DNA from: an uncultured Mycoplasmatota bacterium
GTDB lineage: Bacteria > Bacillota_I > Bacilli_A > RF39 > UBA660
Direction of reading: 5' to 3'
Assembly (NCBI GenBank): GCA_900546245.1
Contig: URBY01000002.1
Coordinates: 1 to 63,528, forward strand
Length of the DNA stretch: 63,528 nucleotides
The position numbers and the translations under genes were made by a program. Shown one piece after another: positions 5,152 to 63,528 of this stretch. The notes under the pieces were generated by a model, which saw only the letters and a list, made by a program, of their open reading frames with translations, did no database searches and was not told the origin of the DNA. How positions within the stretch are numbered: the stretch's first letter is position 1; every line of letters begins with the position of its first letter.

Positions 5152-6384
5152 ATGAATTTTTATGATGAATTAAAATGGAGAGGTCTTATAAAAGATGAGG
5201 CTGGAGATGATTTAGAAAAAATAATCAATGAAAAAAAGGCATGTTTCTATTGGGGGACAGATCCTACTGCTGATAGCCTTCATATTGGACATTATTCTAG
5301 TTTAGTAACTGCTAAGAGACTTGCAAAAGCAGGATTTCATCCAATATTATTGGTCGGAGGAGCGACTGGTATGATAGGTGATCCAAGACCGACATCAGAA
5401 AGAGAAATTATCTCAAAAGAAACAGTTTTAAATAATGTAGAATCTATAAAAAAACAAGTTGAAAAGATATTTGATGGTAATGTTGAAGTAGTTAATAATT
5501 ATGATTGGTACAAAGATGTTAATATTCTTGATTTTTTAAGAGATACAGGAAAATATATTAATGTTAATTATATGCTTAATAAAGATATTATTAGTAGAAG
5601 ACTTGAAACGGGTATAACTTTTGCAGAGTTTACTTATACATTATTACAAGGTAATGATTTTGTACATTTATATGAAGAAAAAAATTGTATAATGCAAGCT
5701 GCAGGTTCTGATCAATGGGGTAATATTACAACTGGAATTGAATTAATAAACAAAAAATTAGGTAAAAAAGCATACGCATTTACAATGCCTTTAATATTAG
5801 ATTCAAATGGTAAGAAATTTGGAAAATCAGAAGGAAATGCATTATGGCTTGATATAAATAAAACATCAAGCTATGAAATATATCAATATTTAATAAATAG
5901 TAGTGATGAAAAAGTAGAAGAATATTTGAAAGTATTTACATTCTTAAGTAAAGAAGAAATTGAAAAAGTTATGAGCGAACACAATGAATGTCCAGAAAAA
6001 AGAATTGCCCAAAAAACACTTGCAAAAGAAATTATAACTGATTTACATGGTACAGAAGAATATAATAAAGCATTAAAAATAACAGAAGCATTGTTTAGTG
6101 GCGATATTGCATCACTTTCTGAAAGTGAATTAAAAGATGCATTATCAGGAGTCCAAACAGAAACAATAACAGAAGAAATGAATATTGTTGATATGCTTGT
6201 AAACACTAAGATTTTATCAAGTAAAAGAGAAGCAAGAGAATTTATTAATAATGGTTCAATAAGCATAAATGGAGAAAAAATAAATACTACTGATATGCTT
6301 GTAAATAAAGAGAAAGCGTTATATAATAAATATATAGTAGTAAGAAGGGGAAAGAAAAAATACTACTTAGTTATATTTAATTAG
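5152..6384 (+). CDS. tyrS: Tyrosine--tRNA ligase
   Basis: HIGH-type motif (SLHIGH), KFGKS (KMSKS-type) motif and a C-terminal S4 domain. GGAGG RBS before the ATG at 5152. The track start at 5089 lies inside the T-box terminator. Confidence 0.95.
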   Translation: MNFYDELKWRGLIKDEAGDDLEKIINEKKACFYWGTDPTADSLHIGHYSSLVTAKRLAKAGFHPILLVGGATGMIGDPRPTSEREIISKETVLNNVESIKKQVEKIFDGNVEVVNNYDWYKDVNILDFLRDTGKYINVNYMLNKDIISRRLETGITFAEFTYTLLQGNDFVHLYEEKNCIMQAAGSDQWGNITTGIELINKKLGKKAYAFTMPLILDSNGKKFGKSEGNALWLDINKTSSYEIYQYLINSSDEKVEEYLKVFTFLSKEEIEKVMSEHNECPEKRIAQKTLAKEIITDLHGTEEYNKALKITEALFSGDIASLSESELKDALSGVQTETITEEMNIVDMLVNTKILSSKREAREFINNGSISINGEKINTTDMLVNKEKALYNKYIVVRRGKKKYYLVIFN

Positions 6385-6393
6385 GAGGTAAAA

Positions 6394-6750
6394 ATGGCAA
6401 AATTATTTTCAAAAGAAAAAGATATAGTTTTAAAAGTAATTAACTCAATACTTGTGATATGGCTTATTGCGGCCGTTGTAATTACATTTGGAGTGGGAAT
6501 TAAAATAATAAATAAAAATGAAATGTTATCATATACTGATTATTCAAAGCAAATATGTGATTTAGATAAGATTCCTGCAGAAGAAATAGATCAAGATACA
6601 ATAAAGGATAATTGTTACGCAAGTTATATTTCAGAAAAGAAAGATAATGAATCATATAATAATGCAAATGTTAATAATATATTAATATCCTTATCAAACG
6701 TTGTTATAGTTACACTATTCTTGAGTTTATTAAATAAAAAATATAAATAG
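6394..6750 (+). CDS. Hypothetical membrane protein (two predicted TM segments)
   Basis: ORF with an RBS (AGGAGG) and hydrophobic N- and C-terminal segments. No family recognised. Confidence 0.4.
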   Translation: MAKLFSKEKDIVLKVINSILVIWLIAAVVITFGVGIKIINKNEMLSYTDYSKQICDLDKIPAEEIDQDTIKDNCYASYISEKKDNESYNNANVNNILISLSNVVIVTLFLSLLNKKYK

Positions 6751-6813
6751 TCAATAGACTATTTTTTAAATTTAAAAATTTTTATAACATATATGTATAA
6801 AAGAATAAAATAA

Positions 6814-6839
6814 AAAAACCTAGATATTTCTAGGTTTTT
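6814..6839. terminator. Bidirectional rho-independent terminator
   Basis: AAAAACCTAGA-TATT-TCTAGGTTTTT hairpin flanked by A and T runs, between convergent genes. Confidence 0.75.
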
Positions 6840-6840
6840 A

Positions 6841-7443
6841 TTATCTACTATAGAATTCAACGATTAATGCTTCATTTATATCTGAGCTAAGTTCGCTTCT
6901 TTCTGGTAATCTAACATATGTACCTTCAAGTTTATTCTTATCGAAAGTAACAAATTCAACAGTATTGTTGATAGCTTCTAAAGCTTCTTTAATAGCTTTA
7001 TGATCTTTTGATGATTCTTTAACACTAATTACATCACCAGGTTTAACCATATATGAAGGAATATCAACTTTTTTACCATTTACTAAGATATGTCCATGGT
7101 TAACAATTTGTCTTGCACCTCTTCTTGTTCTAGAAAGTCCCATTCTATAAACTATGTTATCTAATCTACTTTCAAGAAGTCTTAAGAAGTTTTCACCATG
7201 AATACCTTGCATTTTACCAGCTTTATTAAATAATAGTCTGAATTGTTTTTCATTTAAACCATAAGTAAATTTAACTTTTTGTTTTTCGTTTAATTGGATA
7301 GAGTAGTTAGAAGCTTTTGCTTTTCTATCTTGTCCGTGTTGACCAGGTTTATATGGTCTTTTAGCTAAATCTTTACCATTTTCAAGTGTTGAGAAACCAA
7401 CTCTACGACTTTTCTTATTAGCAGGTCCTGTGTATCTTGACAT
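6841..7443 (-). CDS. rpsD: 30S ribosomal protein S4
   Basis: [17 protein letters not shown]... and an S4 RNA-binding domain. Full length, 200 aa. Confidence 0.97.
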
Positions 7444-7640
7444 TTTCCTTTTCCTCCTTTACTAGATTTCAAACTTTAAGTATTATACTTGCCAATATAT
7501 AGGGTGTTATATTTTAATATGTTCCATCGTGCGTAGCTTTTAAAAGGGCACGGTACTAATAATACTGTTACGTATATAACGCATTACATATTTCAAGTAA
7601 CTGCTACAAAATGTTTGCACACATATTATAACATAAAATA
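7444..7640 (-). promoter_or_regulatory. Possible rpsD 5' leader (S4 autoregulatory region)
   Basis: Long untranslated region upstream of rpsD that is locally more GC-rich (CCGTGCCC...GCACGATGG). S4 autoregulates via its leader in Bacillus. No structure was verified here. Confidence 0.3.
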
Positions 7641-7733
7641 ATAAATAGTCAAACATAATATTAATAAATTAACAGCAAAAATAGTAGAAAAATACAATAT
7701 TTTGTGATAAAATGTAAATAATAGAGGTGAATT

Positions 7734-9446
7734 ATGAATAATGTTCTTTTTATATTTACAATTTACATAGTAACTATCATTATTTTAATAGTAATTTTTG
7801 CACTTAGAAATTCTAAGCAAAATAAAAAATTAAAAGAATCTATTAGTGAACTTGAAAAAGAAAAAAATTTGATAATTAATGCACCTATTTTAAATGAGTT
7901 ATCAAAGGTTGAAGCATTAGTTAAAGATGATAAGTTAAAATATAAATATGATAATTGGCAACATAAATTTGATGATATAAGAAATATTTATATTCCTAAG
8001 GTAACAGATATGCTTCTTGATGCTGATGATTTAGTTGCAAGAAAAAAGTATAAAGAACTTAAAACCTTACTCGCTGATATAGAATTAAAAATTTATAGAC
8101 TTAGAGAAAAGACAAATACATTATTATCAGAAATAAAAGAAATAACATTAAGTGAAGAAAAAAATAGAAATCAAATTGTAAAACTAAAAAACAAATATAG
8201 AGGAATAAAACAAGATTACGAAAAAAATAAGGCTGATTATAAACCAGTAAATAATCAAATAGAACTTCAATTTGAAAACATTGAAAAAAGATTTCAAGAG
8301 TTTGAAATTGTAATGGAAAAGAAAGATTATGACGAGATAAATTATTTAGTAAAAGGTATTACTGAAATGATTGATCATATTGAATATGTCGTAAAAGAAG
8401 TTCCAGCAATTTTAATTATGTGTAATGAATTAATACCAGGAAAGATTGAGGATATTTCAAGTTTATATATAAAAATGACAAGAGAATTGTATCAACTTGA
8501 TTATTTAAATGTTGAATATAATATTAAAGAAACTGAAAAAAAAGTAAAAGATGTTTTAGATAGAGTTAAAGTTTTAAATTTAGAAGATGTTGTATTTGAA
8601 CTTAAAACAATAGTTAATTATTATGATTCTTTATATAGTGATTTTGAATATGAAAAAATATGCAAAAAAACATTTGAATCTAATGTAAAATCATTTAAAA
8701 CAAAGTTAATAAGAACAAATAAAATTATAAGCAATTTAATGGGTCAAATAGATTCTTTATCAGAAACATATGATTTAAAAGAAGAAGATGTAAAGAGATT
8801 AAATATAATCAATGATGAGACTAGAAAAATTAAAGATAGCTATAATAATTTAATGGATTGTAGTAAAAATCATACATTTCCATATTCTAAACTTGTAAAA
8901 GAACTTGACGTGTTAATGATTAAAGTATCAAAACTTGAAGAATCTCTTAATTATGATTTAAAAACTATAGGTAGTATGAAAGATGATGAGATAAGAGCAA
9001 GAGAACAACTTGATAATATTAAAAATTTGCTTAAAAAAGCAAAGAATAGAATTAGACTTTATAATATTCCAGTTATTCCAGATAATTACTTTGTAGAACT
9101 TCAAGATGCATCTGATGCAATTAAAGAAATACAAAAAGAGTTAAACAAAAAACCTATAAATATAGAAACACTTAATATAAGAGTTGATACAGCAAGAGAT
9201 CTTGTTTTCAAAGTATTTAATACAACAAATAGTTTACTTAAAACAATAGTGATGTTCGAAGAAACTTTTGTTTACGGAAATAGATACAGAAGTTATAAAG
9301 AAAAAGTTAATGAAGGTTTAAATTTTGCTGAAAAATTATTCTTTAAAGGTGAATATAAAAAGGCTTTAGAAGTAACTATGAATGCAATAGATTATGTTGA
9401 ACCAGGAATACACAATAAAATAATGAAAGCATATAACGAAAATTAG
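7734..9446 (+). CDS. ezrA: Septation ring formation regulator EzrA
   Basis: 570 aa with a single N-terminal TM helix and then a long coiled-coil-like K/E-rich sequence. Size, architecture and the neighbourhood (rpsD, tyrS) match Bacillus ezrA. Confidence 0.75.
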   Translation: MNNVLFIFTIYIVTIIILIVIFALRNSKQNKKLKESISELEKEKNLIINAPILNELSKVEALVKDDKLKYKYDNWQHKFDDIRNIYIPKVTDMLLDADDLVARKKYKELKTLLADIELKIYRLREKTNTLLSEIKEITLSEEKNRNQIVKLKNKYRGIKQDYEKNKADYKPVNNQIELQFENIEKRFQEFEIVMEKKDYDEINYLVKGITEMIDHIEYVVKEVPAILIMCNELIPGKIEDISSLYIKMTRELYQLDYLNVEYNIKETEKKVKDVLDRVKVLNLEDVVFELKTIVNYYDSLYSDFEYEKICKKTFESNVKSFKTKLIRTNKIISNLMGQIDSLSETYDLKEEDVKRLNIINDETRKIKDSYNNLMDCSKNHTFPYSKLVKELDVLMIKVSKLEESLNYDLKTIGSMKDDEIRAREQLDNIKNLLKKAKNRIRLYNIPVIPDNYFVELQDASDAIKEIQKELNKKPINIETLNIRVDTARDLVFKVFNTTNSLLKTIVMFEETFVYGNRYRSYKEKVNEGLNFAEKLFFKGEYKKALEVTMNAIDYVEPGIHNKIMKAYNEN

Positions 9447-10306: not shown

Positions 10307-11149
10307 ATGCTAAAGAAAATATTAAAGGTAACTGCAGTCTTATTATTAGTAGGATTTAGTTTCTTTTATACTGAAAAAGTAACAATTATCGCTAGGAATT
10401 CCGATCCTATAATGAGAGCCATTAAAGAAGAAGAAAAAGATAAAAAAATATCAAATGTAAATCCAATCGTAAATAAAGATGAATACAAAACTGGTATAAA
10501 TGGCTGCGAGATAGATGTAGATGAAAGTTATAGCAAAATGAGAAGTGTTGGTGAGTTTAAAGAAGAATTAATTGTTATGAAAGAGGTTTCTAATAATAAA
10601 GATTTAACAAATAAATATGTAATTGGTGGAAATAACAAAGATAAAAAAGTTTCATTAATATTTTTTGTTAACAAAGATATAAATAATGATTTAACTAATT
10701 ATATAAATGAAAAAGATATAAAAGTAAATTATTTTATAGATGGTAAATATTTAGAAGAAAATCTAATTACAGTAAAATTTTTATCAGAAAATAATAATAT
10801 ATATTATTTAGGAATGGACGATAAATATAGTGATGAATATATGCTTTATCATAATAATTTAATAGGCATGAATGGTACTAATGAATCAAAATACTGTTTT
10901 ACAAATGATAAAAATGATGAAACTTTAAAAATATGTAATGATTATAATATGATTACAATTAAATCAGATGTTATTAAGGATAATGTTTATAAAACTATTA
11001 AAGATAAACTAAATAATGGTGTAATATTTGCAGTTGATTCAGATAATATAGATGAAATTAAAGTATCAATTAATTATATACTATCAAAAGGATATAATAT
11101 TGTATCATTAGAAGATTTATTATCAGAAAAAAATGGTTGTAATATGTAG
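10307..11149 (+). CDS. Membrane-anchored NodB/polysaccharide-deacetylase-like protein, catalytic motifs not evident
   Basis: N-terminal TM. The central KKVSLIFFVN...IKVNYFIDGKYLEEN pattern resembles the deacetylase core, but no TFDDG or His motifs are present. AGGTGA RBS before the ATG at 10307. Confidence 0.3.
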   Translation: MLKKILKVTAVLLLVGFSFFYTEKVTIIARNSDPIMRAIKEEEKDKKISNVNPIVNKDEYKTGINGCEIDVDESYSKMRSVGEFKEELIVMKEVSNNKDLTNKYVIGGNNKDKKVSLIFFVNKDINNDLTNYINEKDIKVNYFIDGKYLEENLITVKFLSENNNIYYLGMDDKYSDEYMLYHNNLIGMNGTNESKYCFTNDKNDETLKICNDYNMITIKSDVIKDNVYKTIKDKLNNGVIFAVDSDNIDEIKVSINYILSKGYNIVSLEDLLSEKNGCNM

Positions 11150-11199
11150 AATCTTTTTAGATTCTTTTTTTTGTGGTATACTTTTCTTGGTGATTACTT

Positions 11200-13431
11200 A
11201 TGAAAAAAACAGAATTATTGTCTCCTGCAGGTAACTTAGAAACATTAAAAGTAGCAGTTCAAAATGGTGCGGATGCTATTTATATGGCAGGTAAAAAATT
11301 TGGTGCAAGAGCATTTTCAGAAAATTTTAATGATGATGAAATAATAGAGGCAATTAATTATTGCCATTTATATGGTGTTAAAATTTATATAACTATTAAT
11401 ACAATTGTTTATGATTATGAAGTAGAAGACTTTATTAACTATGTAGATTTTATATATAAAAATGGAGTAGATGCTGTTATAATTCAAGACTTAGGTATGG
11501 CAGATTTAATACATAAAACATTTCCAAATTTAGAAATGCATGCTTCAACACAGATGAATGTTCATAATATTAATGGGCTTAAATTCCTAAAAGAACTTGG
11601 ATTTAAAAGGGTAGTACTTGCTAGAGAAGTCCCTATAGAAACTATTAAAAAAATGAAAGAAGAAGTTGATATAGAACTTGAAGTATTTGTCCATGGTGCT
11701 TTATGTATATCTTGTTCTGGAGAATGTTACTTTAGTTATTTTGAATGTAATAGAAGTGGTAATAGAGGTAAATGTGCACAGGTTTGCAGACAGCCATATA
11801 CATTATTAAATGGTGATAAAAAGGTAGAATTAGAAGATAAATATTTACTTAGTCCAAAAGATTTATGTACTATAAATAATTTAGATGATTTAATTAAAAT
11901 AGGTGTAGATAGTTTCAAAATAGAAGGAAGAATGAAAAGTAAAGAATATGTTGGGCTAGTTACTAGATGTTATAGAAATAAAATAGATTATGATAAAGTA
12001 AGTGATAAAGATATTACTAATATGAAAAAGGTATTTAATAGAGGATTTACTTTAGGTAATCTATATAGTAAAAGAGCAAAAGAATTTATTAATGGATTTA
12101 GACCTAATCATTTAGGTGTATTGATTGGTGAAGTAATTGATTATAAAAAAGGAAAAGTAAAAATAAAACTATCTGATTATATAAATCAAGGTGATGCAGT
12201 TAGATTTATTCAAAATAATGAAATAGGATTTTATTTAAATAGAATATATAAAAATGACTTACTTGTTAATGGTGCTAAAAAAGGTGAAATTGTAGAATTT
12301 GATTCAAAAGAAGAAATAAAAAAAGAAACTAAGGTTTATAAAACAATAGATATAAAATTAAATAATTATATAAATGAAACAAGTATTAATTTAAGAAAAG
12401 TATTAATAGATGGAGAATTTAAAGTACAAAATAATAAAATTATATTTACTGTTACAGATAAAGAAAATACAGAAAAAATTATTCTTAATGATTCTGTTTT
12501 TAAAGCAAAAAACAAACCTACTTTAGAAAGTGATATAAAAGAAAAATTAAACAAACTTGGTAATGATATTTATGTATTTGATAATTTAAAAATAGATATT
12601 CCTTCTGATATATTTATACCAATGACTACTATTAATAATCTTAGAAGAGATATTTTAAAAAAAATAACAGATGATAGAATTAGAGTAAAAAATAATTATC
12701 AAAAGAATAATGTAATATTAAATAAATCAGGAATAAAAATTACAAATGATATATTTTTTGAAGTACAAAATAAAGAACAACTAGAATATATTTTAGAAAA
12801 TACAGATTATAAGTGTTATGTAAATAATGTAGTACTATACTCACAATATAAAAATAATGATAGAGTAATATTTAAAATGCCTAGAATTAATAATTCAAAT
12901 ATTAAAAATGAAAATACTTTAATTTCAGAAATAGGTGAAATCACAAAAAATACTATTACTGATACATATTTTAATGTTGTTAATTCATATTATGTAAATT
13001 TTCTTTATAATAAAGGTGTAAAAAAGGTAACACTTTCATATGAACTTACAATAGAAAATATTGAAAATCTTATCAAAAATTATAAGAATAAATATGATGA
13101 AGAACCTAATTTAGAAGCTGTTATTTATGGAAAACCAGAACTTATGATAAGTAAGTATTGTCTTTTAAATACATATGTAAATAAAGAAAAAATATGTAAT
13201 GAGTGCGCTAAAGATTATTATCTAGTAGATAAATATAATAAAAAATTTCCTATTAGAAGTGAAAATTGTTATATGAAAATACTTAATTATAAAGATATTA
13301 ATTATTTAGATAAAATAGATAAGTTACAAAGTATTGGAGTTACTAATTATAAGATAATACTTGATAGAGAAAACATAGAAGAAATAAAATTAATTATAAG
13401 TGCTTTAAAAATAAAAGAAAATATATTATAA
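11200..13431 (+). CDS. Peptidase U32 family protein (long form with C-terminal extension)
   Basis: N-terminus ELLSPAGNLETLKVAVQNGADAIY..., the E..VHGALC.S.SG.C motif and a cysteine cluster are typical of U32. Confidence 0.85.
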   Translation: MKKTELLSPAGNLETLKVAVQNGADAIYMAGKKFGARAFSENFNDDEIIEAINYCHLYGVKIYITINTIVYDYEVEDFINYVDFIYKNGVDAVIIQDLGMADLIHKTFPNLEMHASTQMNVHNINGLKFLKELGFKRVVLAREVPIETIKKMKEEVDIELEVFVHGALCISCSGECYFSYFECNRSGNRGKCAQVCRQPYTLLNGDKKVELEDKYLLSPKDLCTINNLDDLIKIGVDSFKIEGRMKSKEYVGLVTRCYRNKIDYDKVSDKDITNMKKVFNRGFTLGNLYSKRAKEFINGFRPNHLGVLIGEVIDYKKGKVKIKLSDYINQGDAVRFIQNNEIGFYLNRIYKNDLLVNGAKKGEIVEFDSKEEIKKETKVYKTIDIKLNNYINETSINLRKVLIDGEFKVQNNKIIFTVTDKENTEKIILNDSVFKAKNKPTLESDIKEKLNKLGNDIYVFDNLKIDIPSDIFIPMTTINNLRRDILKKITDDRIRVKNNYQKNNVILNKSGIKITNDIFFEVQNKEQLEYILENTDYKCYVNNVVLYSQYKNNDRVIFKMPRINNSNIKNENTLISEIGEITKNTITDTYFNVVNSYYVNFLYNKGVKKVTLSYELTIENIENLIKNYKNKYDEEPNLEAVIYGKPELMISKYCLLNTYVNKEKICNECAKDYYLVDKYNKKFPIRSENCYMKILNYKDINYLDKIDKLQSIGVTNYKIILDRENIEEIKLIISALKIKENIL

Positions 13432-55316: not shown

Positions 55317-55509
55317 ATAATTAATGAGTTAGAAAACCGAAAAAATTCATTAAAATTAAAGACAATTAAATATGTTTTTAATATTATAGATTTTGGTATG
55401 AGTTATTATATATTATTGTAATAGTTTATCTATCTAAAAAATTTATATTTAAGTTAAAAACAATAACACATTTGGGTATTTATCATAAAATAATTTGAGG
55501 AGAGATTTT

Positions 55510-55560
55510 ATGAATAATAATGTGAAGATTGTTGTAGATGCAGGACATGGAGGATACTGA
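55510..55560 (+). pseudogene. 5' stub of an N-acetylmuramoyl-L-alanine amidase (Amidase_3-type) gene
   Basis: Strong RBS (GAGGAG) and MNNNVKIVVDAGHGGY, then a stop. KIV.DAGHGG is the canonical Amidase_3 N-terminus. No continuation is recognisable in any frame. Confidence 0.55.
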
Positions 55561-55704
55561 AAAATCCAAAAATTATGAAATGACTATAAATGTTAGTAAA
55601 TACAAGGATTTAAGGTACTTTGTTAAAGAAAGTATCTTTTTATTATATATTGATTTAAAAAATAAAAAAATTATAGTATAATGTTATTATTGTGAGGTGA
55701 GCAG

Positions 55705-56403
55705 ATGAAAGAAATATATTGTGATGAAAGTAGACAGGATTTATTTTTTAATGAAAATTCAATAACTGATAATAATAAATATATCTTTATTGGTGGTATT
55801 ATGATAAACAAGGATAATCGTAACAAAATTAAAAAAGAAATCAATGATTTAAAAGAAAAGTATAGCTTAAATAAAAAGACAGAATTGAAATGGAATAGAG
55901 TGACTACTAAATATATTAACTTATACAAAGAAATTATAGATGTTTATATTAACAATGATATTAATTTTAGAACTATAAGTATTGATTCTAGTAAGTTGAA
56001 TTTAAAGAAATATCACAAAGATAATCCCGAACTTGGTTTTTATAAATTTTATTATCAATTGTTGAATCATTGGTTAAATAACAAAGATAAATTTATGATA
56101 TATACAGATATAAAAACTTATAGTGATCCTAATGTGTTGAATGATTTAAAAAGATGTTTGAATAACAGAGAGCATCTTAATAGTGTTGAAAAAATATATG
56201 CTATTGAATCACATGAATCTGTATTTTTGCAACTAGAAGATATATTAATGGGAGCAACTGCTTACAAAAAAAATTATGGATATGATGGCAAGTCAAATGC
56301 TAAAGTAGAACTTGTGAAATATTTGGAAGAAAAATTAGGACATCCTTTATTACCAACACCTAAAAATGCATCAAAGTATAATTGGTTTGAAATTTGGCTA
56401 TAA
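55705..56403 (+). CDS. DUF3800-like protein
   Basis: N-terminal IYCDES acidic motif and C-terminal SHESVFLQLEDILMGA, matching my recollection of the DUF3800 (PF12686) D-E and QLAD motifs. Own TATAAT promoter and GAGGTGA RBS. Confidence 0.6.
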   Translation: MKEIYCDESRQDLFFNENSITDNNKYIFIGGIMINKDNRNKIKKEINDLKEKYSLNKKTELKWNRVTTKYINLYKEIIDVYINNDINFRTISIDSSKLNLKKYHKDNPELGFYKFYYQLLNHWLNNKDKFMIYTDIKTYSDPNVLNDLKRCLNNREHLNSVEKIYAIESHESVFLQLEDILMGATAYKKNYGYDGKSNAKVELVKYLEEKLGHPLLPTPKNASKYNWFEIWL

Positions 56404-56834
56404 TGAGTAAAATTCCTGAATTAGTACATTTATCAACGATAGATGAATATAAAAGACATTTTGTTGATAAGTATTGTAAAAAAGAATTAAAAACATTTGA
56501 TGGCATTAGTGTTAAATTTTATGAAGACCAATTTGAACATGCATTTTATGAATCTTCAAATAAAAAGAAAAGAAATAAAGATGTTTTTTCAATAGATAGA
56601 GCAACTAGAATAGATTGGATAGAATATGTATTAAAAAATCCTAAAGCAGAATTGCATTTAGGTTGGGATAGAGATAAGAAAGTATATAATAAGGACAGAC
56701 GAGTTGCAATAATTAGTCCAGAAGATTATGTAGTAATAATAAGATTAAATGGTAATAATAAAGCAAAATTTATAACTGCATATTATGCTGATAATTCAGC
56801 GTGTGAAATAAGAAAAATGCCGTTATGGCAATAA
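56403..56834 (+). CDS. Uncharacterised 143-aa protein, translationally coupled to the DUF3800-like gene
   Basis: TAATG stop/start overlap at 56401-56405. No family confidently recognised. Followed at once by a terminator. Confidence 0.55.
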   Translation: MSKIPELVHLSTIDEYKRHFVDKYCKKELKTFDGISVKFYEDQFEHAFYESSNKKKRNKDVFSIDRATRIDWIEYVLKNPKAELHLGWDRDKKVYNKDRRVAIISPEDYVVIIRLNGNNKAKFITAYYADNSACEIRKMPLWQ

Positions 56835-56858
56835 CCTTAATTTTTGTTAAGGTTTTTA
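56833..56858 (+). terminator. Rho-independent terminator
   Basis: AACCTTAA-TTTTTG-TTAAGGTT hairpin plus a T-run. Confidence 0.7.
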
Positions 56859-57117
56859 TTTGCATAAAAAAACCATTGCTTACTGGCGCAACGGTTAAAG
56901 CCTCTATAAGTCCCAGACTATAAGTAAAGGACTAATAATGATGAATATAATACATCAACAAAAACTATTTGTCAAGATTTATTCATCAATATATATTATT
57001 CTTATCTTCAATAAAAATATACCATATTATTAAAAAAAATTCAATAAAAGTGAAAAAAATTGCAAAAAAAGTGAAAAATTTTACATTTTTCATAATTTTA
57101 GAAAGAGAGGATGATAT

Positions 57118-58410
57118 ATGAATTTAAATTATGCAATATTTAGAAGTGAACCAATTATGACTATTCCTGATTTAGCACAAATAGGTTCACATAATAAAAG
57201 GGAAAAGAAAGCATATAATTCTAACCATGATATAAAACAAGAATTAAGTAAAAATAATATTGAATTAGTACCCTTAACAGAAAAATATGTTAAGGGTTTT
57301 TATAACCTTACAAATGAATATAGAAAGCAACATGAAGAAAAACAAAAAATAGAAAGAAGTGATAGAAAAAAGACTTTTAATCAAATGCTTAATAAATCTA
57401 GAAATGTAGTTGCTGATGAATTATTATTTACTGCAACTTCAGAGTTTTTTAAAGAAATGACAATTGATGATATTAAAGATTGGGCAAATACATGTATGGA
57501 ATTTGTTTATAATGATTTAGGATATACCAAAGAGCAAGTTCTTCATAGTGTAGTTCATTTAGATGAAAAAACACCACATATTCATTGTGTTGTTGTTCCA
57601 TTAGTTAAGAAGTTTGATAATAGAACTAATACCGAAAGATACACTATAACTAAAAAAGAATATATAAAAGATAAAATACACTTATCACAATTACAAGATA
57701 TGTACCACAAAAGATTAGTGGATAAAGGTTATGATTTAGAAAGAGGTATTAAGGGTAGTGATAATCAAAATATTAATATCAAACAATATAAACAAATGAC
57801 TAAAAAAATAAATCATAGTTTGAATGTAAGAAATGAAAAATTTGATAGTGCTATGAATGAATTAGAAGAAAATATGAAATCAAATAAGAATACTATTTTT
57901 GATAAAGAATATGTAAAAGTAAAAAGAGAAACTTTTGAGAGTATGAATAAAGTTATTGATGAATCAAAAAAGGTAAGAGAAATCCAACCTAAATTACAGA
58001 CTATTTTTAATGAAGTTGAAAATTATGATAATAGTTATAAATCATTAGAAAAAGAAAATAAAAAATATGCTAAAGAGGTAAATATATTAGAAAAAGAAAA
58101 TAAAGAATTAAGACAAGAAAATAATAGTTTAATTTATAGATTAAATTATCTATTTGAATTATTAAAGAAATTTTTAAGAAAATTATTACAAAGAGGAAAT
58201 GATTATACTAGAGACGAAACAGCTAAAATTGTTCAAGAATGTTATGATGAAAAAGAATTTGATATGAATGATGTTGTTAGTATTTCTAGAGGGACAACTA
58301 AACAAGATGAATTGTTTGAGTATATAGAAGCACCTGATTATTTAAAATCTAGAATTAAAGATTATGATAAATCCGAAAAAGCTAAAGATGATTATGAAAT
58401 AAGTTTATAG
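57118..58410 (+). CDS. mob: MobV-family relaxase / plasmid recombination enzyme (Mob/Pre)
   Basis: N-terminal MNLNYAIFRSEPI...HN.R motif and the signature HLDEKTPHIHCVVVP (HxDE...PHxH). Coiled-coil C-terminal half. Confidence 0.85.
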   Translation: MNLNYAIFRSEPIMTIPDLAQIGSHNKREKKAYNSNHDIKQELSKNNIELVPLTEKYVKGFYNLTNEYRKQHEEKQKIERSDRKKTFNQMLNKSRNVVADELLFTATSEFFKEMTIDDIKDWANTCMEFVYNDLGYTKEQVLHSVVHLDEKTPHIHCVVVPLVKKFDNRTNTERYTITKKEYIKDKIHLSQLQDMYHKRLVDKGYDLERGIKGSDNQNINIKQYKQMTKKINHSLNVRNEKFDSAMNELEENMKSNKNTIFDKEYVKVKRETFESMNKVIDESKKVREIQPKLQTIFNEVENYDNSYKSLEKENKKYAKEVNILEKENKELRQENNSLIYRLNYLFELLKKFLRKLLQRGNDYTRDETAKIVQECYDEKEFDMNDVVSISRGTTKQDELFEYIEAPDYLKSRIKDYDKSEKAKDDYEISL

Positions 58411-58483
58411 CAGACATCTACCGAAATATAGAAAAATTTGATATAATATATTAAAGAATTAATATGCTTTAGGAAGTGATTGT

Positions 58484-60247
58484 GTGAAGTCATTTAGATT
58501 GATTATAAAAAGTTTTAAAAATACAAAATTTAGAATTGTCTTATATGTTCTATTTAGTTTAATTATTGCATATTTAACAACTCTTATACCTGTAATAATT
58601 CAATATTTTTTAGATGTGTTGTTAAATCAAAGTGTTTCTAATGTTATAATTGAAAAAATTATTAGTATTTTTAGTAATAAATTATCATTTATACCTGCAA
58701 TGTGTTTATTACTTTTATTAGTTAAATTTATTCTTACATTTATAACTTATTTAAGAACAATAATTAAAAATAAAATAATCCAAGAGTTTCAATTTAATAT
58801 TAAACAAACATTGTTTTATCACATTCAAAACTTAACGTATCAAGATTTTTATAAAAAGTCATTAGCAGATTTAGTACAAAATATGGCAGATGATGTAAAA
58901 GATATTGTAACATTTATTGATAAACAATTAACTTATATCTTAGATATTATATTAATATTGGTATTTGCTATTATACAATTATCTGGATTAGATATTCGAT
59001 TATCATCAATTATGATAGTATCTGCTATAATTATGATTTTATTATCTATCTGGTTATTTAGAAAATCAAGGCCGATTGTTAAAGAAAGAATAGAGGCAAG
59101 AAGAAATTTGTATGATAAGATAGATGATAATTATTCAAATATTAAATTTATTAAAGTTAATAATCTACAAGAAGAAGAGATAAAAAGATTTGAAGAAGTT
59201 AATGAAAATAATTTTCTTACAAATAAGAAAAAGGTTGTTACTGATTCGATTTATAATATGACAGTAGCAAATATAACTAAAATACAAAATCCATTTATAT
59301 TTATTTTAGGAACATATTTATATATTAAAGGTATTATATCTGTGGGTAGTATTTATGTTACAATTAGTTATTCAAATAAAATTGGTAGAGGGTTTCAATC
59401 ATTTGGTGAAATGTTTGAATATATAAATACATTTGCAATCGCTTATACAAGGTTAAATGAATTATTAAACTTAACATTAGAAGAGAAAGAAAACAATATA
59501 AAAATAACTAATTCAAAAATAGTATTTAAAGATGCAAGTATTATTGTAAATGATAAAAAAATACTTACTAATTTGAATTTTAGTATTGAGCCAAATGAAA
59601 AAATTATGATAGTTGGTGCAACTGGTAGTGGGAAGTCAATTTTAGCAAAAACACTTGTTGGTTTTTATGATTATGAAGGTAGTATTACTATTGGTGGTTA
59701 TGAAGTAAAAAATCTAAATAAGAAAAATATAAGGGATACCATTTGTTTATTACTACAAGATTCTTATCTATTTTCTAAAACTATTGCGGAAAATATAAAA
59801 ATATTGATGCCTTATATGTCGGATGAAGAAATGATAACTCTATCAAAAGAATTTGCTTTTCATGATGATGTGGAGAAATTTAATAAAAAATATGAAAGTA
59901 TGCTTGGTAAAAATGGTTTAACTCTATCCAAAGGTCAACGACAAAGATTAGTTTTAATAAGAGCTTTTACGAAGTTAAAACCAATAATGATATTTGATGA
60001 TTCTTTTAGTGCTATTGACAGGATAAATAAAAAGACTATTATCGATAATTTAATGAGCAGTAATAATGATAATTGTACAAAAATTTTTATTACACATAAT
60101 GTAAGTTTGGCTCCACAATTTAAAAAAATATTATTCATAGATGATGGGAAAGCATATTTTACTACTCATGAAGAATTATTAAATAATAATAATTATAAAA
60201 AATTATATGAATTAAGTTTAAATAATATAGGTGATGATTATGCTTAA
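58484..60247 (+). CDS. ABC exporter half-transporter, degenerate Walker B partner (paralog of 51857-53611)
   Basis: Walker A GATGSGKS, signature LSKGQRQR, and Walker B MIFDD. GTG start with an RBS. Confidence 0.88.
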   Translation: MKSFRLIIKSFKNTKFRIVLYVLFSLIIAYLTTLIPVIIQYFLDVLLNQSVSNVIIEKIISIFSNKLSFIPAMCLLLLLVKFILTFITYLRTIIKNKIIQEFQFNIKQTLFYHIQNLTYQDFYKKSLADLVQNMADDVKDIVTFIDKQLTYILDIILILVFAIIQLSGLDIRLSSIMIVSAIIMILLSIWLFRKSRPIVKERIEARRNLYDKIDDNYSNIKFIKVNNLQEEEIKRFEEVNENNFLTNKKKVVTDSIYNMTVANITKIQNPFIFILGTYLYIKGIISVGSIYVTISYSNKIGRGFQSFGEMFEYINTFAIAYTRLNELLNLTLEEKENNIKITNSKIVFKDASIIVNDKKILTNLNFSIEPNEKIMIVGATGSGKSILAKTLVGFYDYEGSITIGGYEVKNLNKKNIRDTICLLLQDSYLFSKTIAENIKILMPYMSDEEMITLSKEFAFHDDVEKFNKKYESMLGKNGLTLSKGQRQRLVLIRAFTKLKPIMIFDDSFSAIDRINKKTIIDNLMSSNNDNCTKIFITHNVSLAPQFKKILFIDDGKAYFTTHEELLNNNNYKKLYELSLNNIGDDYA

Positions 60248-61955
60248 CAAGAAATCTTTAAAAGAAATGTTCAATTTCACTACTAATAAGAATAAAACTA
60301 TTAAAATTTCTAGTATCCTATTTTTTCAATCGCTTCCATACTTATTGTTTTATCAAGAAATATTATCTTTGGTAGTAGATAAACATATGCCAAATCAAAA
60401 TCTGAAAATGGTATGTATCTTATCAGGAATTTTATTAGTAATTATAGCAATTAGATTCGCATTTGATTATTACTCAGAAACTAGAAGAAAAAATTGTTAT
60501 TATGATAATGATAGACAAATCAAAAATAAAATATTTAGTGCTATACAATATGCCAATATTAGTGAATTAGATAAAACGCAAACAGGTAACTTATTTGAAT
60601 TAACTACAAATCAAAGTTTTAATGCTAGCCAACTATTTGTATGGAATTTTGCTGGAATATTTTCTGTAAGATTTCGAAGTATATTAATGATTTCAATAAT
60701 AATGCTATTTATAAATTATAAAATATCTTTAATTATAATAGGAATATTTATATTGTCTTACATTATATTGTTACCATTTTATAATACTAATATGAAAAAT
60801 TATCAAATGACATTAAAATCAATACTAAATCTTCAAGGAAAAATTAATGAATATATAGAAAGCTATTCAACTACAAAAACTTTAAGACTTGAAGAAATTA
60901 ATATGGATGAAATAAATTCCATTTTAGAAAAAAGTAAAGAAAAATATTTAAAAACTAATAAAATTTTAGCATTACATACTTCACTTTTTGCATTAATAAC
61001 TTTTTCGGCAGTAATAATAACATTAATCATTGGTGGTAATGAAATAATAATGGGTATAGGTGTTGCATCAACAGTTATGTTATTAGTTGATTACATAAGT
61101 GATATAAATGATCATATGCAAAGTTTATTAAATCATGCTCATGGCATACTTAGTAAGTATAATGCTTTTTTGCGAATACTTAAAATATCTTCAATTGCTA
61201 AAGAAGAAGATAATGGAATAAAAAATATCGATAAAATTAAAAGTATAGAATTTAAAAGCGTCAAAATGAGTTATGATAATGAAAATATAATACTTGAAGA
61301 TATTAATTTAAAAATAGATAAGCCTATGACAATTGCTATTGTAGGAAAGAGTGGAAGTGGAAAGACAACATTCGTAAATTTAATACCTAGATTTTATGAA
61401 TTAATGGATGGGAAAATATTGATAAACGATGTTGATTATAAAGAATATAAACTTAGTGAGCTTAGAAAAAATATATCATATGTTTTTCAAGAGCCAGTTA
61501 TATTAAATATGTCTATAAAAGATAATCTAATATATGGATTAGGAGATATTGAATTTGAAGAAGTTAAAAATATTTGTATTAAACTTGGATTAGACGAAAA
61601 AATAATGTCTTTACCTAATAGTTATGATACAATCATAAATGCAAAAACAGATTTATTATCATTTGGCGAAAAACAATTATTAAGTTATGCAAGAGCAATA
61701 CTTAAAAGTGGAGATATTGTAATACTGGATGAAGTAACATCTAATCTTGATTTAGAATTTGAACAAAATATTATCAATGCTAATAAAACATTACTTAAAG
61801 GGAAAATTGCATTTATAATTGCTCATAGATTAAATACAATTAAGGAAGCAGATTTAATTATATATATTGAAGATAAACATATTGAGGAAATGGGAACACA
61901 CGAAGAATTATTAAAATTAAATGAAAAGTATTCTAAATTATTTATGAGTAAATAA
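60240..61955 (+). CDS. ABC exporter half-transporter, canonical Walker B / degenerate signature partner (paralog of 53613-55316)
   Basis: Walker A GKSGSGKT, signature LSFGEKQ, Walker B VILDEVT, and H-loop AHRLN. The start is 60231-60240, overlapping the upstream stop. Confidence 0.88.
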   Translation: MLNKKSLKEMFNFTTNKNKTIKISSILFFQSLPYLLFYQEILSLVVDKHMPNQNLKMVCILSGILLVIIAIRFAFDYYSETRRKNCYYDNDRQIKNKIFSAIQYANISELDKTQTGNLFELTTNQSFNASQLFVWNFAGIFSVRFRSILMISIIMLFINYKISLIIIGIFILSYIILLPFYNTNMKNYQMTLKSILNLQGKINEYIESYSTTKTLRLEEINMDEINSILEKSKEKYLKTNKILALHTSLFALITFSAVIITLIIGGNEIIMGIGVASTVMLLVDYISDINDHMQSLLNHAHGILSKYNAFLRILKISSIAKEEDNGIKNIDKIKSIEFKSVKMSYDNENIILEDINLKIDKPMTIAIVGKSGSGKTTFVNLIPRFYELMDGKILINDVDYKEYKLSELRKNISYVFQEPVILNMSIKDNLIYGLGDIEFEEVKNICIKLGLDEKIMSLPNSYDTIINAKTDLLSFGEKQLLSYARAILKSGDIVILDEVTSNLDLEFEQNIINANKTLLKGKIAFIIAHRLNTIKEADLIIYIEDKHIEEMGTHEELLKLNEKYSKLFMSK

Positions 61956-62013
61956 TATATTATTTTGCAGAAATTCAAAAGAAACTTTGTGACTAATGGA
62001 TTTTTGCTTTTAA

Positions 62014-62148
62014 CTATCTTTAAGACAAGATAGTAACACACTACGATATTGGCAAAGCCAATAACGGTGTGTGCCAAGGGAAAATCCCTTTGGAATCCCT
62101 AAAGCAACATATTACAAACTATTTGTAAGTAAATATGTTGCCTTTTTT
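62014..62148 (+). other. Hairpin-dense, relatively GC-rich non-coding element ending in a terminator-like hairpin (candidate oriT/sso or small RNA)
   Basis: Four hairpins: 62014-62033 (CTATCTT/AAGATAG); 62037-62071 (about 14 bp, CACAC...GGC/GCC...GTGTG); 62074-62093 (CCAAGGGA/TCCCTTTGG); and 62104-62141 (GCAACATAT/ATATGTTGC) followed by a T-run. Confidence 0.45.
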
Positions 62149-62256
62149 ATTGCATAAAAAAGAAAGAATACTATTACCACTTTCATGAGTGAACTCACAA
62201 AACGTGCCTCGTATTCTTTAATGAAAAATAACCTAATCAAAATGAAAATGAAAAGG

Positions 62257-62772
62257 TTATTTTTCTTTTAAAATACTTTCGTATTTTTTCTCTATTTCAG
62301 ATAAATATCTTTCAATAGAGTCAGCTTTATCTAATAATGATTTATCTATATTATCTTGTTTATTTAAATAGTTATGTATTTCTTTAAAGTATTCACTAGT
62401 ATCCATTGCTATATGTCTTTTTAGATCAATTATATATTCCATATGTTTTATTTCTTCTTTATATTCATTTAGTTTTTTATCATACATTTCATAACTAACA
62501 ATGATTTCATCATCACCATATTTTATTGTTTCGTTAGAATATCCCGCAAGTTTAGCAGTTTTCTTAAATGGAATATCTAAATATTTTTCAAAACCTTTAA
62601 GAACTAGAATAGATGGTTTTACTCTAAATCCACTTTCAATATTATTTATTTCAGTATGACTAACTCCAACTAAAGAGGCTAGTTTTCTTGCCGAAATCTT
62701 TTTTTCTTTTCTAGCAATTTTTACTAATTCTGCAATGGTTTCTTCTTTTTTTAACATACAATCACGCTCCAT
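62257..62772 (-). CDS. XRE-family HTH transcriptional regulator with helical C-terminal domain
   Basis: KISARKLASLVGVSHTEINNIESG HTH. Transcribed divergently from the wHTH gene. Confidence 0.8.
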   Translation of the reverse strand: MERDCMLKKEETIAELVKIARKEKKISARKLASLVGVSHTEINNIESGFRVKPSILVLKGFEKYLDIPFKKTAKLAGYSNETIKYGDDEIIVSYEMYDKKLNEYKEEIKHMEYIIDLKRHIAMDTSEYFKEIHNYLNKQDNIDKSLLDKADSIERYLSEIEKKYESILKEK

Positions 62773-62818
62773 TGATAAGTTAATTATATACTAAATAAAG
62801 TAAAAAGTAAACAAAAAA

Positions 62819-62882
62819 ATGGAAACTTAGTTGACAAAATAGTAATCGCGTTGTAATATGTAGATATGGAAACTTAATTTCC
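62819..62882 (+). promoter_or_regulatory. Promoter (TTGACA-17-TAATAT) flanked by two ATGGAAACTTA repeats (candidate operators)
   Basis: Repeats at 62819-62829 and 62866-62876. TTGACA at 62831-62836 and TAATAT at 62854-62859. The second repeat lies in the palindrome GGAAACTTAATTTCC. Confidence 0.5.
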
Positions 62883-62902
62883 AAAATAGAAAGGAGGATA
62901 AA

Positions 62903-63160
62903 ATGAAAAGAAAATTAGATTTAACAAAACATAAAATTTGGAAAGATAAGAGTATTAAACCTGAAACTAAAGAAATATATGCCTATTTATATTCACAAGG
63001 TTTCAATAAAACAATAACACATGTAAATATTGGGGATATACAACAAATCTTATCAATTACAAATGTTGGATTTAGAAATAACTTAAAAATACTAGAAAAA
63101 TTTAAATATATAGTATTTAAAGAATATAATCCAGGAATGTATGAAATTCATGTTTACTAA
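62903..63160 (+). CDS. Small winged-helix (HTH_36/Rep-N-like) protein
   Basis: 85 aa. The pattern ..K..YAYLYS.......T....I..I..I......NN...LEK.KYI is similar to the next ORF and to plasmid/phage replication-associated wHTH proteins. Confidence 0.45.
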   Translation: MKRKLDLTKHKIWKDKSIKPETKEIYAYLYSQGFNKTITHVNIGDIQQILSITNVGFRNNLKILEKFKYIVFKEYNPGMYEIHVY

Positions 63161-63316
63161 AATGATTAATAATCGTTAGTAAAACAAGGTACAGTAAATG
63201 TTCGGAGATTTATATTAGTACCTTTCTATATTTATTTTAGAAAAACAAATAGGAATTATAGTCCTTATTTATTATTTAAAAAGGTGATATATATTTATTT
63301 AGATTGTGATTTTATT

Positions 63317-63528
63317 ATGATTCCAAGAATATTATTTAATGATAGTTCCTTATCTGAAACAGATAGAATGGTAATGGGACTTATCATATCACTTACCTTA
63401 AAGAATACCTATTGTTATGCAAGTAATGAATATTTAGAGAAGTATATTAATAAATCTCAAAGAACAATAAATTATTCATTGTCAAAACTTAAAAAATTAA
63501 AATATATTAAAGATTTGATTGGAACTTC
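63317..63528 (+). CDS. Winged-helix replication-initiator-like protein, 5' partial (runs off window)
   Basis: MIPRILFNDSSLSETDRMVMGLIISL...YCYASNEYLEKYINKSQRTINYSLSKLKKLKYI, typical of an HTH_36-type N-terminal domain. Confidence 0.45.
   Translation, partial: MIPRILFNDSSLSETDRMVMGLIISLTLKNTYCYASNEYLEKYINKSQRTINYSLSKLKKLKYIKDLIGT

Follow-up and report, generated by a model that had tools for sequence, protein, structure and literature searches.

The 63,528-nucleotide stretch analyzed here (contig URBY01000002.1 of an uncultured Mycoplasmatota bacterium; hereafter the window) carries two overlapping genes, A and B, which encode a DUF3800 protein and a small partner protein. We find that these genes belong to a module of three parts, of which the third, a small RNA (sRNA) gene convergent to A-B and located after gene B, is a conserved and invariable component. 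By its profile matches, the A-B pair is a member of PDC-M04, an already catalogued PADLOC candidate anti-phage system. A first-pass annotation made from the sequence had described a self-contained two-gene cassette corresponding to no named defense system; the constant presence of the sRNA gene contradicts the first part of this description, and the listing of the pair as PDC-M04A/B in PADLOC-DB v2 contradicts the second. We could find no earlier description of either the invariable sRNA partner or the orphan copies of it that we find in phages. We are highly confident of the anatomy of the locus and the module, and from it we infer a defense or toxin function.

A conserved small RNA gene convergent to A-B

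A scan of one genome per species returned 133 relatives of gene B, 80 of which were kept as loci. These span Bacilli, Clostridia, Bacteroidota and Alpha-, Gamma- and Epsilonproteobacteria, as well as Chloroflexota, Planctomycetota, Nitrospinota, Thermotogota and archaea, and represent more than ten phyla overall. In the 70–120 nt after B, conservation of the DNA exceeds that of the proteins. Positions 56868–56939 of the window match, at 100% identity, loci in which the B proteins share 63–81%, and between phyla stretches of 50–70 nt in this region stay 78–90% identical. Iterated nhmmer searches located the element in 76 of the 80 loci, with no variation in its position or in its strand, which is the one opposite to A-B. 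All 79 genome loci with DNA downstream of B carry the sRNA there (76 at E < 1e-9, and three as weaker, non-seed matches at the same place); L043, which ends at B and has no downstream DNA, lies outside this count. A covariance-model scan of 866 kb gave nothing else below E 0.1. Loci carry a single copy, except for L036 (6706–6777) and L209 (3511–3708), where two copies follow B.

The structure model comprises a 5′ hairpin (P2), a single-stranded linker and a terminator hairpin (P1), detailed in Table 1. In the seed set, 92.7% of cells are paired, compared with 79.0% upon shuffling (0/500 shuffles) and 27–46% when the partners are slid, and compensatory changes occur in 17 of the 19 pairs (169 cells). 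The window sRNA folds as a single sequence at −22.6 kcal/mol (z −3.2). G-U cells far outnumber A-C cells (78 versus 6), and promoters of lineage-specific form lie at the same distance in other phyla, reading TTGACA...TAtaAT in Firmicutes and Proteobacteria and TAnnTTTG in Bacteroidota. Together these two observations fix the strand of the sRNA as that opposite to A-B. P1 and its U-run, on the minus strand, form the only terminator-like site called by the scanner. The possibility that the sRNA is a tRNA or a transfer-messenger RNA was rejected, as ARAGORN makes no such call.

In five Clostridia loci without an A gene, and likewise in L039, B keeps the sRNA, which is therefore tied more tightly to B than to A. 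The five form a sub-clade (L015 and L017–L020, around 5900–9200) in which B and the sRNA occur without a DUF3800 gene; in L017, L018 and L019, the two lie directly upstream of cas6- and cas8b-like genes.

The conservation of this RNA bears on an account in which the system is protein-only and the element has no protein-binding role, acting either as a bidirectional terminator or as a type I-like antisense regulator of the A-B mRNA. Such a role would suit P1, which with its U-run is a terminator, and would fit those loci in which the element abuts the 3′ end of B or overlaps it by up to 17 nt, but it leaves unexplained why P2 and the linker are conserved as much as P1, why the stems covary, and why the sRNA has a strong promoter of its own at a fixed distance. 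It also sits poorly with the full-length copies that phages carry with no A or B gene anywhere near (see below). As to antisense pairing, complementarity between the sRNA and the start region of B shows no excess over shuffles (mean z −0.12, 18 loci), and the window A-B transcript terminates at its own terminator before the sRNA is reached; because of these two points, simple antisense control is unlikely. Taken as a whole, we consider the protein-only account very unlikely.

The two proteins of the module

In PADLOC-DB v2, protein A matches PDC-M04A over nearly its full length (model PDLC04353, 205.5 bits, E 1.8e-61), and protein B matches PDC-M04B (model PDLC04359, 182 bits, E 1.9e-54), with ten further M04B models matching more weakly. 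The PDC systems are 145 “guilt-by-embedding” candidates, that is, cassettes found inside BREX, DISARM or type I restriction-modification (R-M) loci (Payne et al., bioRxiv 10.1101/2024.01.29.577857). PDC-M04 is cassette CAS_00034 (FAM_00014>>FAM_00043; the leading figure of its row is 679). A literature search found no paper that names PDC-M04.

The assignment of gene A to DUF3800, made in the first-pass annotation from two motifs, is upheld by Pfam (PF12686, 49.1 bits versus a cut-off of 21, E 1.3e-12, residues 4–187). The domain is present in all listed full-length A homologs and absent from three short fragments. Both motifs, IYCDES and LQLED, are conserved, with C6, D7, E8 and S9 invariant and Q176 nearly invariant among the homologs; D135, outside both motifs, is invariant as well. 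The two motifs correspond to the N-terminal D-E and C-terminal QxxD motifs described for DUF3800 (PMC7736814), the latter reading Q176-L-E-D179 in gene A, such that the acidic site is intact. An AlphaFold2 (AF2) model of A, built on 46 homologs, has a predicted local distance difference test (pLDDT) score of 91.7. The top 12 matches of this model to the Protein Data Bank (PDB) in Foldseek are all archaeal RNase HII (E down to 2.3e-5, probability 1.0, template modeling [TM] score about 0.45–0.5). An RNase HII-like or RNase H-like fold is thus firmly predicted for A, in agreement with the RNase H/H2-like fold ascribed to DUF3800 in the literature (PMC7736814, PMC10910872).

Gene B had been placed in no family and considered compatible with a small nuclease. 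Its lack of a Pfam family stands, and a small nuclease remains plausible, albeit with family matches that are confined to relatives and fall below threshold. Nothing significant was found for B in Pfam, NCBIfam or PHROGs, and its profile gave nothing below E 0.18 against PDB sequences. The family is of moderately large size, with 564 representatives at 50% identity. When 41 aligned relatives were scanned with Pfam, eight matched PBECR3, seven DUF4258 and four PBECR2, collinearly and over nearly the full profiles. The AF2 model of B (pLDDT 93.8) has an N-terminal helix and short helices followed by a four-strand meander. Its only PDB matches are weak ones to BrnT, HigB (HigB2) and RelE (E ≥ 0.66, probability ≤ 0.38). 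In BFVD, it matches one uncharacterized phage (siphovirus) protein at E 2.7e-6, as well as parts of phage proteins of 940–1385 residues at probabilities of 0.69–0.98. The conserved polar residues of the family (H46, E50, K59, R66, R99, R100, K122 and T125) would suit an RNase site. Considered together, the sub-threshold family matches, the layout of the model and the conserved polar residues make B a likely candidate for a divergent RNase of the BECR (Barnase/EndoU/colicin E5-D/RelE) fold or PBECR type.

Genomic context of the module

The co-occurrence of A and B, anticipated from their coupling in the window, holds across the collection. In 72 of the 80 loci, the end of an A homolog meets or overlaps the beginning of B, in the order A>>B and usually with a stop/start overlap. 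Most of the exceptions can be explained: the eight loci without an adjacent A comprise two contig ends, one locus in which A has been lost and the five Clostridia with B alone. The nearest downstream gene is a type I HsdR in 16–20 of 67 loci, and the nearest upstream gene is HsdS in 9 of 64. Roughly one in four of the A-B pairs is flanked by hsdS and hsdR within a type I restriction operon. Nearest neighbors also include Shedu SduA (twice) and Cas6 (twice). The HsdR and HsdS neighbors reproduce the embedding by which PDC-M04 was defined; this embedding is seen in the relatives, while the window copy is not embedded in an R-M operon. The carriage in mobile or defense-related DNA suggested by the first-pass annotation is therefore borne out, by a mobilizable element in the window and by type I R-M, Shedu and cas neighbors elsewhere.

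Several loci have further features. In L028 (8235–9603) and L041 (6706–7440), the first module is followed by another DUF3800 gene, a divergent one, which in L028 is accompanied by a weak B-like open reading frame (ORF); no significant sRNA match lies behind these additional DUF3800 genes. L042, L046, L050 and L069 (around 10800–12000) are type I R-M islands that carry the embedded module and terminate beside tRNA genes, as integrated islands typically do. On the Bacteroides contig L013, an RT-2 RNA (Rfam RF03077, 63.8 bits, 97–293) lies ∼5 kb upstream of the module, which suggests a reverse-transcriptase (RT) element in the same island.

Table 1. Features of the module, its signals and the surrounding element in the window
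Feature	Positions	Strand	Details
Gene A (gene 1)	55705–56403	+	232 aa, MKEIYCDES... to ...LQLEDILMGA
Gene B (gene 2)	56403–56834	+	143 aa, ATG start at 56403
sRNA gene	56864–56940	−	∼75 nt, convergent to A-B; covariance-model match 56866–56940 (−), 69.7 bits
sRNA promoter	56947–56975	−	TTGACA-17-TATTAT; 11/12 matches, best promoter-like site in the region; predicted start near 56940
sRNA P2	56909–56933	−	10-bp 5′ hairpin (structure model)
sRNA linker	56897–56908	−	UAUAGAGGCUUU, single-stranded; nearly invariant consensus UAYAGAGGYYUC
sRNA P1	56871–56896	−	9-bp terminator hairpin (structure model), conserved CGCUGARCC...AAUCAGCG, then U-run
A-B promoter-like site	55654–55682	+	TTTAAA-17-TATAAT; TATAAT at 55677–55682
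A-B ribosome-binding site	55694–55700	+	GAGGTGA, 4 nt ahead of gene A ATG
A-B terminator-like hairpin	56834–56862	+	AACCUUAA/UUAAGGUU and U-run, directly after gene B stop
Amidase stub	55510–55560	+	MNNNVKIVVDAGHGGY then stop; 16-codon 5′ start of interrupted Amidase_3 gene
Left junction of element	∼55555–55558		inside DAGHGG-coding motif
MobV/Pre relaxase	57118–58410	+	Pfam Mob_Pre, 8.7e-27
Element backbone	55447–58410 and 62008–63512		common at 96–98%
Variable cargo	58411–62007		
Two ABC-transporter genes	58484–61955		window cargo, between mob and helix-turn-helix (HTH) gene

Within the window, the gene boundaries given by the first-pass annotation and its TAATG, TATAAT and GAGGTGA motifs were all found in place. 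The stop codon of A (TAA, 56401–56403) and the start codon of B (ATG, 56403–56405) share the TAATG at 56401–56405, which couples the two genes translationally. The −35 box of the A-B promoter-like site, TTTAAA, is weak. The site scores 10/12 matches, and in this AT-rich region promoter-like sites occur at chance level (21 found versus 19.8 expected). The 150-nt A-B leader is 100% identical across five independent insertion contexts. A terminator had been noted after gene B, and one is indeed present there, but the second hairpin behind it, P1, was overlooked as the sRNA's own terminator on the opposite strand. The A-B hairpin was missed by the scanner because it has only two G-C pairs.

Contigs encoding a protein identical to the B of the window turn up in 44 blocks of the collection. 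At the six such places listed, DUF3800 precedes B in all six and Mob_Pre follows in five, the sixth contig ending there; on longer contigs, variable cargo comes next, followed by HTH genes and a large serine recombinase. In five contexts, the left flanks are unrelated and the amidase N termini differ, and all five converge where ...GGACATGGAGGATA meets CTGAAAAATCC, and the junction falls inside the DAGHGG-coding motif of differing Amidase_3 genes. Relatives carry intact Amidase_3-LysM genes nearby. Because the five contexts converge inside Amidase_3 genes, the amidase stub represents the target gene cut by an integrative mobilizable element. The large serine recombinase of this element is encoded beyond the end of the window. 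Thus, the amidase stub and MobV relaxase, both recognized in the first-pass annotation and confirmed here, mark a MobV and serine-recombinase integrative mobilizable element inserted in an amidase gene, and the window module sits at its left end as passenger or backbone cargo. Flanking direct or inverted terminal repeats of the element were sought and nothing convincing was found, and no multi-copy spread was seen. A plasmid BLAST of the region gave a sole match, to a mobV gene at 65% identity.

This setting raises the possibility of an addiction or stabilization module, in which the main effect of the same three parts would be post-segregational killing that stabilizes the carrier mobile element or R-M island, and not phage defense. 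The module is constant backbone just inside the left end of a mobilizable element whose cargo varies, and its embedding elsewhere is in type I R-M operons, selfish units in their own right. What element stabilization hardly explains is the presence of orphan sRNAs in lytic phages and in phage tRNA arrays, described below. We regard addiction as an unlikely primary role, noting that one module could serve both addiction and abortive infection.

Orphan RNA copies in phages and a proposed mechanism

A degenerate-pattern search of IMG/VR returned at least 120 places, of which 80 were fetched and 64 proved to be full-length model matches, scoring 39–85 bits. A and B adjoin the sRNA in only five of these 64, and at least 59 are orphan copies. 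The nearest ORFs of the orphans are capsid, small terminase, RecT, integrase and HNH genes, and no divergent A or B genes were found among the nearest ORFs using our own hidden Markov models (HMMs), Pfam and PADLOC. The viral sRNAs form an independent set that also covaries, with 91.3% of cells paired versus 69.8% in shuffles and 232 compensatory cells. Only ten viral loci could be anchored on B, and in all ten the sRNA occupies its canonical place.

Phage tRNA arrays contain or adjoin around 16 of the orphans, which share the strand of the tRNAs, and in seven loci the distance to a tRNA is 0–5 nt, as if the sRNA were co-transcribed and processed with the neighboring tRNAs. Copies in such arrays are found in L098 (1849–2165), L091 (1744–1893), L148 (758–919) and L166 (8992–9228), with further ones in L144 (6729–6875), L145 (10870–11023) and L160 (7005–7158). 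Cultured carriers of orphans are Xanthomonas phage Xp10, Sphingobium phage Lacusarx and Methanosarcina virus MetMV. The Xp10 copy is full-length (NC_004902.1, 9418–9498, equivalent to L207 2468–2548; 78 bits) and fills an unannotated gap that has the tail gene 16R on one side and 17R, a free-standing HNH endonuclease, on the other. In P1 and the linker, this copy shares 95% identity with proteobacterial system RNAs, while the differences in P2 are compensatory. A literature search found no description of this Xp10 sRNA.

The best explanation we can offer, held tentatively and at somewhat less than even confidence, is that three-part PDC-M04 is an RNA-controlled toxin-antitoxin or abortive-infection module and that the phage copies are decoys. 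In this model, the sRNA would be made constitutively and strongly, and would bind the putative RNase B and hold it in check, possibly together with A. Infection by a phage would lower or displace the sRNA, because host transcription is lost or because the RNase H-like A cleaves it; A could thus be a co-effector or an enzyme that removes the sRNA. The freed nuclease would then cut cellular or phage RNA. Phages, in turn, may respond with sRNA copies of their own that act as decoys and are often placed in tRNA arrays. A precedent for phage RNA decoys is the pseudo-ToxI RNA of phage PhiTE, which neutralizes ToxN.

Several observations weigh against this model. The PBECR and DUF4258 matches among relatives of B all fall short of their cut-offs (15.5–22 bits versus 27–30), and the window protein itself has no Pfam match, including to PBECR2, PBECR3 or DUF4258 at E ≤ 10, and only non-significant PDB fold matches, both of which weaken the RNase assignment. 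Alphaproteobacterial loci have a weak U-run behind P1. Finally, the orphan copies could serve a phage role unrelated to defense, as some of them adjoin HNH homing endonucleases.

The same HNH neighbors would also fit a reading in which the sRNA is a guide or scaffold for an RNA-guided nuclease or mobility system. Here the RNase H-fold protein A would use the RNA, as in Argonaute, IS110 or TnpB-type systems, for the cleavage or recombination of nucleic acid, with B as an accessory and the phage copies as marks of a mobile RNA-plus-homing unit. The RNase H-like fold of A with its intact acidic site would be in keeping with this, as would the links of DUF3800 to many RNAs (PMC5737381) and to Cas12a2/a3 loci (PMC10910872, PMC13594972). 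However, the sRNA persists in loci that have B but lack A, and its single-stranded linker is nearly invariant across phyla and so cannot encode variable targets. Nor do the single copy per locus (L036 and L209 excepted) and the lack of terminal repeats or multi-copy spread resemble a mobile unit. We therefore judge an RNA-guided system to be improbable.

If the RNA-controlled model is extended to its fullest form, no earlier defense or toxin system would have had a BECR-type RNase and an RNase H-like partner governed, as in PDC-M04, by a dedicated trans-acting sRNA, with the orphans of Xp10, the archaeal virus and the tRNA arrays acting as anti-defense decoys. We consider this full combination somewhat unlikely. 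DUF3800 is widespread in defense contexts, including retrons, Cas12a2/a3 loci and R-M islands, and its link to structured RNAs has been unexplained since 2017; if the model is true, one instance of that link gains a function. Should the RNA act as an antitoxin or sensor, protein-only detection based on the two-protein definition misses an essential part of the system, and cloning the two ORFs without the downstream RNA could mislead through toxicity or null results. Orphans in phage tRNA arrays would represent a new kind of cargo for such arrays. With two small proteins and one 75-nt RNA, the module is a compact test case, for which matching host and phage material exists: Xanthomonas genome L072 has the system and phage Xp10 an orphan RNA.

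Relation to known systems

The module of the window shares with PDC-M04 (Payne et al.) strong matches of both proteins to its HMMs, the same gene order and the same strand, and its relatives are embedded in type I R-M operons as in the definition of the candidate. In contrast to that definition, which comprises two proteins only and includes neither the sRNA nor its phage orphans, the module has an RNA component, and in the window it rides on a mobilizable element rather than in an R-M operon.

DUF3800 genes have previously been associated with 11 different structured RNAs, DUF3800-I to DUF3800-XI (Weinberg et al. 2017, PMC5737381), of which DUF3800-I and -IX are certainly in Rfam (PMC11701678). 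As in these motifs, the RNA described here is structured, has a 3′ intrinsic terminator and lies beside a DUF3800 gene, an arrangement that occurs in either orientation. Unlike them, it tracks B, including in loci without DUF3800. Rfam 15 gave no family for it at gathering score, either in the window or across 42 related loci, and a maximally sensitive Rfam search of 181 nt (56820–57000) found no match to a DUF3800 motif, drum or skipping-rope at E ≤ 10.

DUF3800 is also the effector of type VII retrons, which consist of an RT, a non-coding RNA and DUF3800 (Mestre et al. 2020, PMC7736814). Both systems combine a DUF3800 protein with a structured non-coding nucleic acid in a defense-type module. 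In retrons, however, DUF3800 lacks the Q of QxxD, which gene A retains as QLED, and the present sRNA is unrelated to msr/msd. There is no RT in or beside the cassette, whose neighbors are the amidase stub, MobV and the ABC transporters, and no retron or RT RNA family of Rfam is found in the window. Because no RT is present, a retron reading of the module was rejected.

With the PBECR/BECR nucleases (PF18810, PF18812; DUF4258), protein B shares its size and the layout of a helix followed by a four-strand meander. Its relatives match collinearly over nearly the whole profile and conserve His, Glu, Arg and Lys; the difference is one of score, as these matches lie below the gathering thresholds and the window protein has none.

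PrrC and RloC are anticodon nucleases embedded in type I R-M operons. The likeness lies in a putative RNase-type effector between hsd genes, which could form a second line when restriction is blocked. A and B differ from them in having no ABC-ATPase domain and no sequence relation, and tRNA cleavage is not indicated.

In type III toxin-antitoxin and abortive-infection systems (ToxIN, CptIN and TenpIN), a protein endoRNase is checked by a structured, abundant RNA, and phages escape with RNA mimics. The fold of ToxN is Kid/MazF-like, whereas B is at best BECR-like, and PDC-M04 has an additional RNase H-like protein. The arrangement of the RNA also differs, which counts further against the mechanism proposed here: the RNA of type III systems consists of tandem repeats upstream of the toxin, whereas the sRNA is a single convergent gene downstream of B, and tandem repeats sought at its locus were not found. 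Despite these differences in fold and layout, the logic that we propose for PDC-M04 would be the same as that of the type III systems.

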